A stretch of DNA of 64,000 nt. Origin: an uncultured Nitrososphaeraceae archaeon. Its GTDB lineage: Archaea > Thermoproteota > Nitrososphaeria > Nitrososphaerales > Nitrososphaeraceae. The stretch lies in NCBI GenBank assembly GCA_963837175.1, contig CAWIMJ010000018.1, forward strand, positions 1 to 64,000, given 5' to 3'. Position numbers and translations under genes: made by a program. Below, in pieces: positions 16,097 to 22,721 of the stretch; within the stretch, counting starts at the first letter, position 1; each line of letters starts with the position of its first letter. Under the pieces are notes generated by a model. That model was given only the letters and a program-made list of their open reading frames with translations. It ran no database searches and was not told the DNA's origin.

Positions 16097-17445
16097 ATGA
16101 CAATGATAATGAATACAAAAAAAATCGGTGTTTTTAGTGTTTTATTGGCATCAGTAATTGGACTGTTAAGTGCAACTGCTACTTTACAAGTAGCCAATGC
16201 GCAACTAGGACCTGGTGGACTAGGCGGAATTGGCGGATTAGGTGGCCTTGGTGGACCTGGAGGATTAGGTGGACTAGGCGGCCTTGGTAGCTTTGGTGGA
16301 CCTGGAGGATTAGGTGGCCTTGGTAGCTTTGGTGGACCTGGTGGAATAGGTGGACCTGGTGGAATAGGCGGAATTGGCGGATTAGGTGGCCTTGGTGGAC
16401 CTGGAGGATTAGGCGGAATTGGCGGATTAGGTGGCCTTGGTGGACCTGGAGGATTAGGCGGACCTGGAGGATTAGGTGGCCTTGGTAGCTTTGGTGGACC
16501 TGGTGGACTAGGCGGAATTGGCGGATTACGTGGCCTTGGTGGAGTTGGAAGCCTTGGTGGACCTGGTGGACCTGGAGGATTAGGTGGACTAGGCGGCCTT
16601 GGTAGCTTTGGTGGACCTGGTGGAATTGGCGGATTAGGTGGACTAGGCGGAATTGGCGGATTAGGTGGACTAGGCGGCCTTGGTGGACCTGGAGGATTAG
16701 GTGGACTAGGCGGCCTTGGTAGCTTTGGTGGACCTGGTGGAATTGGCGGATTAGGTGGACTAGGCGGAATTGGCGGATTAGGTGGACTAGCGGCCTTGGT
16801 GGACCTGGAGGATTAGGTGGACTAGGCGGCCTTGGTAGCTTTGGTGGACCTGGAGGATTAGGTGGAATTGGTGGAATTGGCGGTCTTGGTGGACTAGGCT
16901 CCAAAACATTACCTTTATTTACAGGTAATCAAAATACCACTACTTCTATCAAAGTTTCTAGTCTTATGCCTAATACACTAGCTTCCCAGCTAAAGACAAA
17001 TATAGGCAAAATCTCTGATACTGCAGAACAACAAGTAGGCAATAATTCTCGTACACTATCAGCTTCTCTAACAGCTCTCAATGGATTTGCAGTTTATGAT
17101 GTATTGGTAGCAGGCAATGGTGGTAACTTACATGAATTTCTACTAGATCCAGGTAACGGAAAAGTAGTTGCTCAATACGGATTAGGCGTAATTGGCGGTC
17201 TTGGTGGACTAACTTCCCAGCTAAAGACAACTATAGGCAAAATCTCCAATATTGCAGAACAACAAGTAGGCAATAGTTCTCGTACACTATCAGCTTCTCT
17301 AACAGCTCTCAATGGATTGCCAGTTTATGATGTATTGGTAGCAGACAATGGTGGTAACTTACATGAATTTCTAATAAATTCAGTCAACGGAAAAGTAGTT
17401 CTATATCGCACCAATCAGATGGACATGATGTCTAATATGAGCTAG
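16097..17445 (+). CDS. secreted (Gly-Gly-X)n repeat protein with two C-terminal PepSY-like domains; one-base frameshift at about 16790
   Basis: Signal peptide ending VANA-Q; [12 protein letters not shown] triplets over about 16205-16899; restoring one G (GGACTAG[G]CGGCCTT) fuses ORF 16097 to ORF 16966, which has two VYDVLV..LHEFL(L/I)(DP/NS).NGKVV repeats. Confidence 0.85.
16205..16899 (+). repeat. coding minisatellite of 9-bp units
   Basis: Recurrent units GGTGGACCT, GGAGGATTA, GGCGGAATT, GGTGGCCTT, GGTAGCTTT and GGTGGACTA arranged in higher-order blocks. Confidence 0.92.
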
Positions 17446-18667: not shown

Positions 18668-18839
18668 TTGAAGCTATCCCAAGGAATAAGATATAAGATC
18701 TGCTAGAAATAATTCGCTCAAATTACGAGAATTCCCCGATCCAATTGAAAAGAAAGTGTCCATCTTCTCAGGGGGCGTGACTCAGATCTTAAATTCCTAG
18801 TCAATTAATTTCAGTAGTTCTATTATATAATACACATAA

Positions 18840-19418
18840 ATGACAACAATTGTTGGTATCAGAACTAAGGAAGGTGTTGTACTTGGATCAGACAAAAGAG
18901 CGAGTAAGGGCTTCTTTATTGGTTCGAAAATAACACAGAAAATTTCAAAGATTGATGATAGTTTGGCCATAGCAATCGCTGGTCAGCTATCAGATGCAGA
19001 ATATCTGATTAAAGTTGCAAAAGCAGAAAGAAAGTTGATGGAGTTAAGAAGAGGATTTATGCTAACAGTAAAGGAATCTGCAAGACTTATTGCAAATTTG
19101 GCATATTCTGGTCTAAAGAATTACCAACCATACTTTGTAGAATTGTTAATTGCAGGTGTTGATAAAGAAGGGGGACATGTGTATGTGGCAGATATGAGTG
19201 GTGCAATAACTAACGAAGATTTTGCATCTTCAGGTTCTGGCTCTCCAATAGCTTATGGAGTTCTTGAAAGCTTATATCATAAAGAAATAACTAATGAAGA
19301 AGCTAAAGAAATTGCAACAAAAGCAGTATCAGCAGCAATGGAACGCGATCCAGGATCAGGAAATGGCATAGATGTATTAATAATTCCCAATCTGTTAGTA
19401 GTGGAGGTGGCTAAATAG
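18840..19418 (+). CDS. psmB: 20S proteasome beta-type subunit without propeptide
   Basis: M-TTIVGI start; Thr1, Asp17, Arg19, Lys33 and Gly47 in register; SGSGS and RDPGSG motifs. Confidence 0.92.
   Translation: MTTIVGIRTKEGVVLGSDKRASKGFFIGSKITQKISKIDDSLAIAIAGQLSDAEYLIKVAKAERKLMELRRGFMLTVKESARLIANLAYSGLKNYQPYFVELLIAGVDKEGGHVYVADMSGAITNEDFASSGSGSPIAYGVLESLYHKEITNEEAKEIATKAVSAAMERDPGSGNGIDVLIIPNLLVVEVAK
19403..19409 (+). promoter_or_regulatory. Shine-Dalgarno-like GGAGGTG before the alpha subunit start
   Basis: Lies inside the 3' end of the beta gene, 11 nt upstream of ATG 19421; intergenic gap is 2 nt. Confidence 0.6.
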
Positions 19419-19420
19419 AA

Positions 19421-20137
19421 ATGTCAGAGAATAGTGTGACAGGATCAGCATCCAACTCTGGCTTTGGCAGTAGTCGATATCCATATTACTATGGGCCTGG
19501 AGGCAGATTAGTATTAGTAGATAGTGCATTAGAAGCAGTCAATAGAGGTTCAACTACGATAGGAATTAAAACACCAAACTTTGCATTACTCTCAAGTCAT
19601 ATCAAGCCGACTAATGCTTTAGTGGATCCTGCTGAAAAAGTATTTACAATTGATAGACATGTAGGTGCCACAGGCTCAGGATACATAGGTGATATCTTGC
19701 AACTAATTGATGAACTACGATTAGAAGCACAGAAGCATAGACTTACATTTGAAAGCCCAATTGATATAAGCTCGCTTGCAAAGCATATTGGCTCCTACTT
19801 ACACAATTTTACCATATATGCAGTCAGACCCCAAGCAGCCTCAATAATAATTGCAGGAGAGGATCAAACTGGAGTTCAGTTATACCAAGTAGATCCCAGC
19901 GGAACTTTCTTTAGAGGATCAGGATTTGCAATAGGGCAATCATCGGATACTGCGTTGGACATAATTCAACGAGAATATACTGCAGATATGGGTGTTGATC
20001 AAGCAATTGAATTAAGTATTAAAGCAATAGAAAGAGCACTCGGAGAAAAACCATTGGTGGAGACTGGTATAGTTATTAAGAATAAGAATGAAGGAACAAG
20101 AGGAGAAGAAGAAGTAGCTCAGTTCAAAAAGCTGTAA
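19421..20137 (+). CDS. psmA: divergent 20S proteasome alpha-type subunit
   Basis: GPGGRL..ALEAVNRGSTTIGI, EKVFTIDRHVG, AVRP, LYQVDPSG and AIG motifs; canonical YDR/FSPDG/QVEYA motifs altered. Confidence 0.88.
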   Translation: MSENSVTGSASNSGFGSSRYPYYYGPGGRLVLVDSALEAVNRGSTTIGIKTPNFALLSSHIKPTNALVDPAEKVFTIDRHVGATGSGYIGDILQLIDELRLEAQKHRLTFESPIDISSLAKHIGSYLHNFTIYAVRPQAASIIIAGEDQTGVQLYQVDPSGTFFRGSGFAIGQSSDTALDIIQREYTADMGVDQAIELSIKAIERALGEKPLVETGIVIKNKNEGTRGEEEVAQFKKL

Positions 20138-20150
20138 TAACCAAACCAAA

Positions 20151-20164
20151 TTCTTTCTATTTTT
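20151..20164 (+). terminator. T-rich archaeal terminator candidate
   Basis: TTCTTTCTATTTTT shortly after the tandem stops of the alpha gene. Confidence 0.4.
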
Positions 20165-20567
20165 GGAAGTCTAAAATGGAATTTTATTAGAGATAGATCT
20201 TCTGAAATTTGGCCTTTCGCTATATTAAAAAATCAATACTTATAGGTATTTCAGGTTAAATTGTTCAAAAGAAGAAAGGATTATTGCTTTCAAAAATATG
20301 CATAGTCTATGATATAAATCTAAATCTACCGCTATATAGAAATGCAATTGACTATGCGATATCATGCTTAAATTATTTATAAATAGATAGATGGTAACAA
20401 CATAGTAATAATGCGAAAATAGAAAGCGATGTGCTGCTGTCTTCTTCCTTTTGATAATTAGTTATCCTGCAGATGTCTAAAAAACCATATTTGGCTTTAA
20501 TATAAAAGATAATGATATTTTATTAAAAGGCCATGTATAATATATTATACTAATATATTATTAAAAT

Positions 20568-21503
20568 ATGCATAATAAGATAGCACATTCTGCTGAACAT
20601 GCTTTTATAGGATCACTTCAAAAGTTCATAGGTAAAACGCTAAATGTTAGAAAGGTAGAACATCGTAAAACGGATAACAGCGTATTTATTACAATTCCTT
20701 CTCTTGATTTAGAGTTAATAATCAGAGCAGAATCAGAAGTAAATTCGCTTATTAATATGGGAAGAAAAATTATAACGCATTGTTTTGAGTCGCTAACTGA
20801 AGCAAAGGAACATTTGCCTAGCCTGCGGGCAAATGAAGAGCGGATAACAGGATCCAATCCAGTAATGGTAGTAGAGATTGAAGGTCATGACTTTGCGGCT
20901 TGTGCTATGGAACACGTAACGAATCTCAATGAATGCAGTTTCTTTTTAGTAACTAGAATATCCAAAAATGGCAACGATTATGAGATTAATTTCGTGGTAG
21001 GAGAGCAGGCAAAAGAGACTGCAATTGCATTATCATTAAAACTACTGAAAATTTGCGAAGAGATAGACGCAAACCTTAACACAGTTGAGAATACAGTGAG
21101 AAAGCTAAAAATAGACAGTGAAATATACCTTGGCAAGTTAAAAAATATAACCAAAGAAAAGCTTGATAACATAATACCATACGTTACTGAGTATAGTAAA
21201 ATAACTATTATTCGTGGTATATTTTCCGATTTGCTAGATGAGGAAGTTCGCATATTTGCAGGAAGAAAAATTGCTGAATCTAATATGGTCGTCGTTGTTG
21301 CTAATATAAATCATCATTCTGATGATACAGCAAGTATTGTATTTGCAAGAAATGAGACCTTAGTGAATATTGATTGTAATAAATTATTTAGAGAAATATC
21401 TTCTAAGGATGGACGAGGTGGAGGAAAGCCTCATTTTATTACAGGTGTAGTTAACAAAGAAAGAGTAACGGATATTGTAAATAGCATTATTGCCAAGTTA
21501 TGA
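20568..21503 (+). CDS. AlaX-like tRNA editing protein with C-terminal DHHA1 (C-Ala) domain
   Basis: HSAEH (HxxxH) and CAMEH (CxxxH) Zn ligands; GRGGGKP DHHA1 motif. Confidence 0.85.
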   Translation: MHNKIAHSAEHAFIGSLQKFIGKTLNVRKVEHRKTDNSVFITIPSLDLELIIRAESEVNSLINMGRKIITHCFESLTEAKEHLPSLRANEERITGSNPVMVVEIEGHDFAACAMEHVTNLNECSFFLVTRISKNGNDYEINFVVGEQAKETAIALSLKLLKICEEIDANLNTVENTVRKLKIDSEIYLGKLKNITKEKLDNIIPYVTEYSKITIIRGIFSDLLDEEVRIFAGRKIAESNMVVVVANINHHSDDTASIVFARNETLVNIDCNKLFREISSKDGRGGGKPHFITGVVNKERVTDIVNSIIAKL

Positions 21504-21746: not shown

Positions 21747-22478
21747 TTAAATTGTGGCAATTTTGGTTGTTTCATCGGGTCTGAACCTATCCCACATTGA
21801 GCCAAATATTATACCTATCATTCCCCAGAATATACTCATAGTGAATGCACTTGAAATTCTGAATCCAAGTACTAAATCCATAGGCACAGTTATTATCTTA
21901 TCTGGATTAGGTGGAAGGGCAAGATAAGCGCCAGCAATTATTGCTGCATACATTAATGGAAATATAATGTTTTTAGTTATCGTTGGTAACTTGTTTCCAA
22001 GTGTTCTATACATAAATGCTATAACTAAAGCGCTGAATCCAGATATAGCAATAAATGTAACATATAGACTCTGTCTATAGTATATTGTTTTTGGATCACC
22101 CACTGCAGGTGGATTTGCAGGATACTTTAATGCTGGAATTATGAATAACACAAGACACATTATTCCGGCCAAAGCTAATGCTTTCTTCTTATTACTCGAA
22201 CCTGGTAGTGAAGTTCTATTATATATGAAGACTATTCCAAACAATGCTGATAGGGATGTGCCTAGTATAGTTCCAGCAACAATTTCTCCACCTTTCTGCC
22301 ATATTCGATATCCTGCAAGTTCAGATGGATTAATTACTTTGCGTTCTGTGACTGCAGTTTCTATCCTTATTGCCCTGTCGATATATGGTTCTACAATACC
22401 TTGATTAATTATTCCTAGTATAGTTCCAGCGATTGCACCAGAAATCAGAGTTATTGCAAGAAAGAGAAGTGTCTTCAT
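21747..22478 (-). CDS. cbtA: CbtA-family putative cobalt transporter subunit
   Basis: VEPYIDRAI.IE and PALKYPANPPAVGDP.TI..RQ motifs; multi-TM; downstream of cbtB. Confidence 0.9.
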   Translation of the reverse strand: MKTLLFLAITLISGAIAGTILGIINQGIVEPYIDRAIRIETAVTERKVINPSELAGYRIWQKGGEIVAGTILGTSLSALFGIVFIYNRTSLPGSSNKKKALALAGIMCLVLFIIPALKYPANPPAVGDPKTIYYRQSLYVTFIAISGFSALVIAFMYRTLGNKLPTITKNIIFPLMYAAIIAGAYLALPPNPDKIITVPMDLVLGFRISSAFTMSIFWGMIGIIFGSMWDRFRPDETTKIATI

Positions 22479-22680
22479 TTGTTGACGTTTACATCCATAC
22501 TACTACTAGTGACATGGGAATCCTGCAGCATGTCTCATATCATGATAGAACTCATGCATCCACATAGTATCAAACGCCTGATCTCCTTGAGCTAGACTGA
22601 AAAGATTTCCTTGATCATATCCTACAATGAACAATCCGAATACCAATATTCCGAACAATACTCCAATTGCTATCTTTGGT
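22378..22680. repeat. about 300-bp near-identical inverted repeat, arm 1 (arm 2 at about 25948-26252)
   Basis: Covers most of cbtB, the intergenic spacer and the 5' end of cbtA; only a few mismatches to the reverse complement of arm 2. Confidence 0.9.
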
Positions 22681-22721
22681 ATTCCATTAATGTCCTTAGT
22701 AACTTGTTGACTACTTAACAT
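22506..22721 (-). CDS. cbtB: CbtB-family putative cobalt transporter subunit
   Basis: One TM helix and the C-terminal HEFYHDMRHAAGFPCH motif. Confidence 0.93.
   Translation of the reverse strand: MLSSQQVTKDINGIPKIAIGVLFGILVFGLFIVGYDQGNLFSLAQGDQAFDTMWMHEFYHDMRHAAGFPCH

Follow-up and report, generated by a model that had tools for sequence, protein, structure and literature searches.

Why should an archaeon with normal proteasome genes carry a further beta and a further alpha gene, side by side, elsewhere in its genome? The question is raised by two genes in a 64,000-nucleotide (nt) stretch of DNA, hereafter the window, from an uncultured Nitrososphaeraceae archaeon (assembly GCA_963837175.1, contig CAWIMJ010000018.1, positions 1 to 64,000 of the forward strand). 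The first encodes a 20S proteasome beta subunit and the second a divergent alpha subunit, and we call them beta2 and alpha2. The host is a soil ammonia-oxidising archaeon which has normal proteasome genes too. An initial annotation, made from the letters alone, had proposed that the pair encodes an accessory 20S-like particle. On balance we favour a closely related view, in which the pair is the core of a second, accessory proteasome, a separately regulated alternative to the housekeeping 20S core.

The initial annotation advised listing every alpha and beta gene of the genome, and this shows that the pair is not the only set. The window assembly (58 contigs, 3.8 Mb, 91% complete) has five PF00227 genes, namely the pair, one canonical alpha and two betas with propeptides. 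The last three lie at other places in the genome, and so the pair is an addition to them. The housekeeping alpha is 245 amino acids (aa) long, has the canonical gate segment and scores 299-327 bits on archaeal alpha models. One housekeeping beta has the leader ...KKG/TTT and the other MAFQFMPG/ATAVG, the slash standing before the Thr1 position, and Ala occupies that position in 7 of the 15 housekeeping betas collected. The Ala type would fit the inactive structural beta of Sulfolobus, where a preprint describes an active beta, Saci_0909, and an inactive structural one, Saci_0662 (bioRxiv 10.1101/774273). The same set of three plus two PF00227 genes, with beta and alpha adjacent, is present in all five Caldarchaeales- or Methanomethylicia-type genomes checked, and relatives without the pair show three PF00227 matches. 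The active-type housekeeping beta of the window genome (G000, contig C46, locus L002, 1429-2010) is itself unusual, being just 193 aa long and ending early; its orthologues have 219-220 aa, and its Pfam match goes no further than position 171 (of 189). The gene may be truncated, or a frameshift or an assembly error may be responsible.

The pair is found well beyond this genome. With alpha2 as the query and a threshold of E 1e-50 or better, orthologues were present in 109 of the 401 genomes sampled from the order (76/267 high-quality genomes, 25/82 genera), the counts by family code being 71/111 in f1, 6/9 in f4, 11/13 in f7, 13/112 in f13, 5/15 in f15 and 0/97 in f10. Three unpublished genomes (G272, G283 and G126) are included in these counts, and the conclusions are independent of them. 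A phylum-wide search (401 sampled genomes, E 1e-45 or better) added matches in f29 (11/17, 47-51% identity) and f27 (24/32, 40-45%), and in none of the other families sampled. Exact-sequence look-up of identical beta2 proteins gave the names Caldarchaeum subterraneum and Caldarchaeales for f29, and Verstraetearchaeota, Methanomethylicaceae and Methanosuratincola for f27. Identical beta2 proteins are also named as Nitrososphaera gargensis Ga9.2, Nitrosomirales, and Nitrosotalea and Nitrosopumilaceae metagenome-assembled genomes; because a protein identical to one orthologue bears the name N. gargensis, cultured carriers exist. When 1.84 billion representative proteins were scanned, just 21 matched at E 1e-30 or better; clade members and fragments came first, then ordinary alphas with at most 131 bits.

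Gene order is equally well kept. In 33/33 loci alpha2 is immediately preceded by beta2 in the same orientation, beta2 in one of them being frameshifted rather than present as an open reading frame (ORF), so the conservation of the pair, which the initial annotation had put forward for checking, is borne out. Among the first 19 loci, 17 have a gap of -4 to +5 nt between the genes, one has 16 nt and one 238 nt; the f27 and f29 loci have a gap of 0-3 nt or a short overlap. From these comparisons the pair is not a local oddity but a conserved accessory set of several related archaeal lineages. The 238-nt gap (locus L015) holds a small ORF on the reverse strand (2151-2384) with weak alpha2 likeness (28 bits).

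The phylogeny places the pair apart from the housekeeping orthologues, as the initial annotation had expected. In the main tree (IQ-TREE, 74 rows, 242 columns, LG+C20+F+G4, with the truncated L002 beta left out) alpha2 forms a clade of 15 rows (ultrafast bootstrap (UFBoot)/SH-like approximate likelihood ratio test (SH-aLRT) 100/99) and beta2 one of 14 rows (99/97). The inactive-type housekeeping betas (7 rows, 100/99) and the active-type ones (7 rows, 90/83) also form clades, and each of the four contains members from Nitrososphaerales, f29 and f27. The housekeeping alphas of the same genomes fall elsewhere among archaeal alphas. A quick tree of 124 rows agrees, with an alpha2 clade of 22 rows (SH-aLRT 99). 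On the simplest reading, the accessory genes would be an ancient pair of paralogues that arose before these lineages split, with many losses since. Three alphas beside the alpha2 clade (P0233, P0234 and P0236; 97/93) have canonical termini and are uninformative on its origin. A possible fusion, P0215 (495 aa), proved to be a tandem eukaryote-type alpha unrelated to the pair.

Both proteins match PF00227, beta2 with E 4.7e-50 (residues 2-182) and alpha2 with E 2.9e-41 (residues 40-218). On the archaeal beta model TIGR03634 beta2 scores 208.4 bits, just below the equivalog cut-off of 224, and with 217 and 224.5 bits the housekeeping betas of the same lineages are just as borderline. The nearest solved structure is the Archaeoglobus fulgidus beta (1j2q_H, 143.9 bits). 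By such scores beta2 is on a par with the housekeeping betas, and the strongly diverged partner is alpha2.

The catalytic residues of beta2 were followed in a MAFFT alignment of 32 orthologues, two of them cut by a contig end, with 15 housekeeping betas. Numbered from Thr as 1, the window protein has Thr1, Asp17, Arg19, Lys33, Ile45 and Gly47. Thr1, Thr2, Asp17, Arg19, Lys33 and Gly47 are kept in 30/30 orthologues, and Gly-Ser-Gly at 131-133, Asp169 and Ser172, which we take to be Ser129, Asp166 and Ser169 in Thermoplasma numbering (offset +3), in 32/32. The residues listed as intact in the initial annotation, Thr1, Asp17, Lys33 and Gly47 among them, are thus confirmed, as is Ile45 in the window protein, and the retention of the catalytic residues in all orthologues points to purifying selection on function. 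At position 45, 26 of the 30 have Ile and 4 have Val. At position 49 all 30 have Leu where housekeeping betas have Val or Ile, and at position 53 Glu is present in 20/30 where housekeeping betas have Gln (15/15). Judging from solved structures, Leu49 would narrow the S1 pocket.

Beta2 also differs at its start. A TAA stop abuts the ATG on its 5' side and the open frame is exactly 192 codons long, therefore there is no space for a propeptide in the window gene. A start codon (ATG, GTG or TTG) stands directly before Thr1 in all 30 beta2 genes with complete 5' ends, and the promoter element described below holds a fixed distance to that codon. With a stop before the ATG of the window gene, and a start codon before Thr1 in 30/30 orthologues, a propeptide with autolysis at Gly-1/Thr1 is absent from beta2, and the earlier description of a propeptide-less M-T-T-I-V-G start is upheld.

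Alpha2 has diverged much further. It scores 156 bits on TIGR03633 (cut-off 287.35) and 163.7 bits on NF003075 (cut-off 219), where the genome's own housekeeping alpha reaches 299.4 and 327.4 bits, respectively; its best solved matches are archaeal alphas. The N-terminus is Ser/Gly-rich and is followed by RYPYYYGPGGRLVLVDSA at the site of the canonical gate segment of the housekeeping alpha; the segment RYPYYYGP(E/G)GRLVLVDSALEAV takes the place of the canonical YDR gate segment. In the alignment the equivalents of Tyr8-Asp9 and Tyr26 are lost and that of Arg10 is kept (Ser-Ser-Arg at 8-10, Ser at 26). The equivalents of Pro17, Gly19 and Lys66 are retained; in an alignment of 79 sequences K73 and G28 are invariant and P26 is present in at least 90%, a further sign of purifying selection. 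The chain ends 0-8 residues past the last strand (S10), and the C-terminal helix H5 is absent from the alignment. An AlphaFold2 model built on the 79 sequences (pLDDT 90.1) shows the complete alpha fold, in which helix H0 (31-42) precedes the sandwich; residues 1-22 are disordered, the last element is a strand at 235-237, and there is no terminal helix. An insert near residues 220-234 is genus-specific and of low confidence in this model. The alignment bears out what was first noticed of the tail and gate, and alignment and model together bear out the end of the chain before the last helix.

The coordinates of the pair and of the other features of the window are collected in Table 1. The gap of 2 nt between the beta2 stop and the alpha2 start was seen both in the ORF listing and in the sequence read directly; this gap, the GGAGGTG within the 3' end of beta2 and the T-rich run after alpha2 are all placed as in the initial annotation. 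The GGAGGTG is likely to act in coupled translation of alpha2, and the T-rich run is possibly an archaeal oligo-T terminator.

Table 1. Positions in the window of the accessory proteasome genes, their putative signals and other open reading frames.
Feature	Position	Strand	Description
Promoter element GTGACT-N17-GTCAATTAAT	18777-18809	+	63 nt upstream of the beta2 ATG
beta2 ORF	18840-19418	+	192 aa, starts MTTIVG; proteasome beta
GGAGGTG, Shine-Dalgarno-like	19403-19409	+	Inside the beta2 3' end, 11 nt before the alpha2 ATG; read directly
alpha2 ORF	19421-20137	+	238 aa; proteasome alpha, divergent
T-rich stretch ttctttctattttt	20151-20164	+	After the alpha2 stop; read directly
Glycine-rich ORF	16097-16816	+	239 aa
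AlaX-like ORF	20568-21503	+	311 aa
CbtA/CbtB gene pair	21747-22721	-	Cobalt transporter

The pair seems to have a promoter of its own. Of 29 loci from three lineages, 28 have the pattern GTGACY-N17-GTC plus an AT box at 55-75 nt before the beta2 start; the spacer measures 17 nt in 27 of these and 16 nt in the other. A looser pattern gave 35 matches in 318 kb of these loci on both strands, these 28 included. The strict pattern occurs once in the 3.8-Mb window genome, at beta2, and shuffled genomes gave 0-5. In form the element resembles an operator with an inverted repeat. An AT-rich, TATA-like box adjoins the element's right half, about 31-37 nt before the beta2 ATG, and this box would suit the TATA box of a message with a very short leader. 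A TATA-like run directly before the ATG was considered as the core promoter and is probably not it, the conserved element fitting better. In the window genome, the 160 nt in front of each of the five Cdc48-like genes, of an AAA gene and of the Hsp70 gene contain no GTGAC or GTCAA half-sites. We read the element as a conserved promoter belonging to the pair, which would place the pair under dedicated control.

A candidate for that control is a gene that we call X. It adjoins the pair in 17/33 loci, and every f27 and f29 locus has it directly upstream in the same orientation; in most carriers no more than about 5 kb separates it from alpha2, as judged by eye from place tables rather than by exhaustive count. 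Its counts per family equal those of alpha2 in f4 (6/9), f13 (13/112, the same 13 genomes) and f15 (5/15). The product has a winged-helix N-terminal half and a C-terminal alpha/beta domain of about 100 aa with a GRWF..RWLG motif, in which W..RW and L.W are invariant. The fold of the N-terminal half alone aligns to MarR proteins (VIA-align; 3hrm_A, Z 12.3, 75 residues, rmsd 3.2), and Pfam MarR is over its cut-off in 1 of 7 members scanned (25.3 vs 24.6); Foldseek against the PDB gave no match at E 0.001 or better. A complex prediction of X with alpha2 and beta2 (locus L023) scored 0.00, without a verdict, and speaks neither for nor against X binding the core. Synteny suggests that X may regulate the pair. 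A gene of metallo-beta-lactamase fold is found near the X-beta2-alpha2 cluster in eight f27/f29 loci (L037-L038, L041-L046).

The pair is probably expressed. Of 24 sequencing runs listed, 17 are recorded as RNA. No run contains as much as half of the words sampled, the best share being 0.44. Contigs from four soil metatranscriptome runs (four studies), placed at 92% likeness or better, cover 18844-20049, with nothing in 18700-18843 or 20050-20300; the end of coverage at 20049 is no evidence of a transcript end. Three contigs bridge the junction between the two genes, X1 (19350-20038) with 4 mismatches, and X2 (19262-19675) and X5 (19320-19540) with 0 mismatches each. The empty flanks argue weakly against carry-over of DNA.

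How might such a second core work? Beta2 and alpha2 would be transcribed from their own promoter as one message, with translation coupled across the 2-nt gap by the Shine-Dalgarno-like sequence, and the system would probably be switched on by X as a dedicated winged-helix regulator. Beta2 would be an active threonine peptidase made without a propeptide, its Thr1 exposed by methionine aminopeptidase alone, as in HslV and Anbu. There would then be no autocatalytic maturation step, and activity would depend only on ring assembly. Alpha2 is predicted to form the outer ring and keeps the docking-pocket lysine and the Pro17-Gly19 turn. In canonical alphas the Tyr8-Asp9/Tyr26 cluster stabilises the open gate; since alpha2 lacks this cluster and the last helix, its gating and its coupling to activators should differ from those of the housekeeping particle. 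The two proteins would most likely assemble with each other into an alpha2(7)-beta2(7)-beta2(7)-alpha2(7) particle, which would co-exist with a housekeeping particle of one alpha, one active beta and one inactive-type beta. Tentatively, and with somewhat less than even confidence, we extend this to a self-contained second 20S that predates the split of Nitrososphaeria and Methanomethylicia, with a propeptide-free beta, an alpha ring that in ammonia oxidisers lacks the canonical gate and opening mechanism, and a single-target winged-helix regulator acting on the 33-bp operator-promoter. If true, it would be a prokaryotic counterpart of the inducible specialised proteasomes, yet built as a separate particle.

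Several observations weigh against a separate and separately controlled core. A further in-frame start lies 3-36 codons upstream in 9/30 beta2 genes, where a short leader is possible. Methanomethylicia alpha2 retains the canonical YDR, Tyr26 and a stub of the last helix, therefore the remodelled gate is a later gain in Nitrososphaeria that does not define the system. X is unlinked to the pair in the window genome (C37:4708-5520, reverse strand), and neither the strict element nor its half-sites are found upstream of it. Weaker X-like genes are present where the pair was not found (73/97 genomes in f10, 12/12 in genus g13); with such homologues in families without the accessory proteasome, the X family may have a wider role. 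The bootstrap of the main tree was not fully settled (correlation 0.984), which makes its support values rough, and the contigs from RNA libraries cannot prove transcription or a single transcript, as DNA carry-over is possible. The predicted binding of alpha2 to beta2, rather than to the housekeeping subunits, must also be set against mixed particles, which a review reports for archaea with extra alpha or beta genes (PMC13022661).

The last point leads to the idea of a single proteasome for which alpha2 and beta2 supply alternative subunits; these would be induced in some condition and enter the housekeeping cylinders, giving mixed or ring-swapped particles. We consider this unlikely, though far from negligible. 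Haloferax alpha2 is reported to behave so, and immunoproteasome subunits offer an analogy. The housekeeping beta ring, with its Ala-type subunits, already appears heteromeric, like that with the inactive Saci_0662 of the Sulfolobus preprint (bioRxiv 10.1101/774273), and beta2 diverges no more from the archaeal beta model than the housekeeping betas do (208-215 vs 217-224.5 bits). However, a full alpha and beta set in a coupled operon, inherited and lost together over a deep split, exceeds what a subunit swap needs, and alpha2 is far more divergent than a ring-compatible paralogue needs to be (156 vs 299 bits). A beta2 double ring independent of alpha, like HslV, Anbu or BPH, would account for the missing propeptide and for the M-T-T start shared with HslV-type proteases, with alpha2, its gate residues and last helix lost, as a non-gating protein such as an assembly or regulatory factor. 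This is improbable, as beta2 scores as an archaeal 20S beta (208 bits) and not as HslV (27 bits vs a cut-off of 157.75), and alpha2 is always co-encoded and retains the whole alpha fold including helix H0. It is harder still to believe that the genes are decaying or functionless duplicates, or a recent horizontal acquisition without a role. Their patchy spread (109/401 genomes of the order, 25/82 genera) and the one frameshifted beta2 would fit decay, but frames are intact and catalytic residues invariant across lineages 40-60% identical, the promoter is conserved, the pair is present in RNA libraries, and its clade structure parallels that of the housekeeping paralogues. A second, accessory core thus remains our preferred reading.

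Partners for this second core were sought in the window genome. No PAN homologue over the cut-off was found there. Five ORFs are Cdc48-like with double AAA domains, one of which ends ...KAFYG, an HbYX-like terminus, and could possibly serve as an activator. A dedicated PAC2/Pba chaperone was rejected, as the counts of PF09754 do not track the pair (1, 6, 3, 3 and 2 in five carriers; 4, 4, 3, 3 and 3 in five non-carriers). Identical copies of a PAC2 gene lie on contigs C10 and C11, and gene X on C37 is duplicated in an identical copy on C22; these may be redundant assembly or real duplications. The sole Hsp70 match (C12:133878-135615, reverse strand) is in three pieces with internal TGA and TAG stops, and is either a broken gene or an assembly error.

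In the window the pair has AlaX/DHHA1-like, CbtA/CbtB, PepSY and DUF1348 genes as neighbours, and these are kept beside it solely within the genus. The initial annotation had drawn from this neighbourhood a role in the handling of oxidised or stress-damaged proteins, which is unsupported, since the neighbours are conserved at genus level only; of its accessory particle, what stands is that the pair is extra, separate from the housekeeping clades and conserved. The AlaX-like product resembles the C-terminal editing/DHHA1 part of alanyl-tRNA synthetase, with weak matches to TIGR03683 and NF040865 and a DHHA1 score of 24.4 bits, below the cut-off. CbtA and CbtB match PF09490 (E 2.2e-51) and PF09489 (E 1.7e-10). 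In the glycine-rich ORF, which may encode a secreted protein, a long stretch of GGLGG/GGPGG repeats comes after a signal-like N-terminus; the opposite strand holds a mirror ORF of equal length.

Ammonia-oxidising archaea have a major part in the cycling of nitrogen in soil, and to our knowledge their protein quality control is almost unstudied. A second proteasome, if true, would be a natural experiment on the purpose of the propeptide checkpoint, and on the coupling of gate residues to activators where PAN is absent and Cdc48-type unfoldases are relied on. The conserved element and the neighbouring regulator offer an experimental handle on when the second particle is made. In the full-text literature searched, outside which most subscription journals and supplements fall, there was no description of such a pair. 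A co-inherited beta-alpha operon with a propeptide-free beta and a gate-remodelled, helix-less alpha therefore seems new, as do the conserved promoter element, the syntenic regulator gene and the spread over ammonia oxidisers, Caldarchaeales and Methanomethylicia.

Among known systems, the canonical archaeal 20S of PsmA and PsmB (Thermoplasma acidophilum 1pma, A. fulgidus 1j2q) belongs to the same PF00227 fold family and has the same beta catalytic set, and canonical PsmA shares helix H0, Pro17-Gly19 and Lys66 with alpha2. Unlike PsmA and PsmB, the pair is a beta-alpha operon with a propeptide-free beta and is additional to the canonical set, and alpha2, without Tyr8-Asp9/Tyr26 and helix H5, scores far under the equivalog cut-off. 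Two complete alpha and beta sets in one genome are also found in Rhodococcus erythropolis, a bacterial system whose betas have long propeptides. There, both sets are beta-alpha prcBA operons, with two alpha and two beta types, and the review PMC13022661 describes it as still unclear whether the sets mix. In contrast, the proteins described here are of archaeal type, only one of the two sets forms an operon, the other being unlinked, and strong remodelling is seen in the accessory alpha. The link to actinobacterial prcBA raised in the initial annotation does not extend beyond gene order, as beta2 reaches 73.9 bits on the bacterial 20S beta model (cut-off 191.9) against 208.4 on the archaeal one, and alpha2 has no match to the bacterial alpha model TIGR03691 at E 0.01 or better.

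That archaea with extra alpha or beta genes build alternative particles is already known, and PMC13022661 describes this for Haloferax volcanii alpha2 and other archaeal paralogues, where additional core subunits are used for alternative particles when conditions change. In those cases a single gene is added, whereas here an alpha and a beta are co-inherited as an operon with its own promoter. The two housekeeping betas of the window genome, of the G/TTT and the Ala-at-Thr1 type, look like Saci_0909 and Saci_0662 as described in the Sulfolobus preprint (bioRxiv 10.1101/774273). Beta2 differs from both in forming a third beta clade, active-type, propeptide-free and linked to its own alpha. In Anbu, removal of the start Met alone exposes the catalytic Thr, according to PMC5666114. 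Beta2 is predicted to have this exposure by Met removal in common with HslV and Anbu; its scores on the HslV models are low (TIGR03692 27.1 bits, cut-off 157.75; NF003964 26.1 bits, cut-off 137), and HslV and Anbu have no alpha ring partner.

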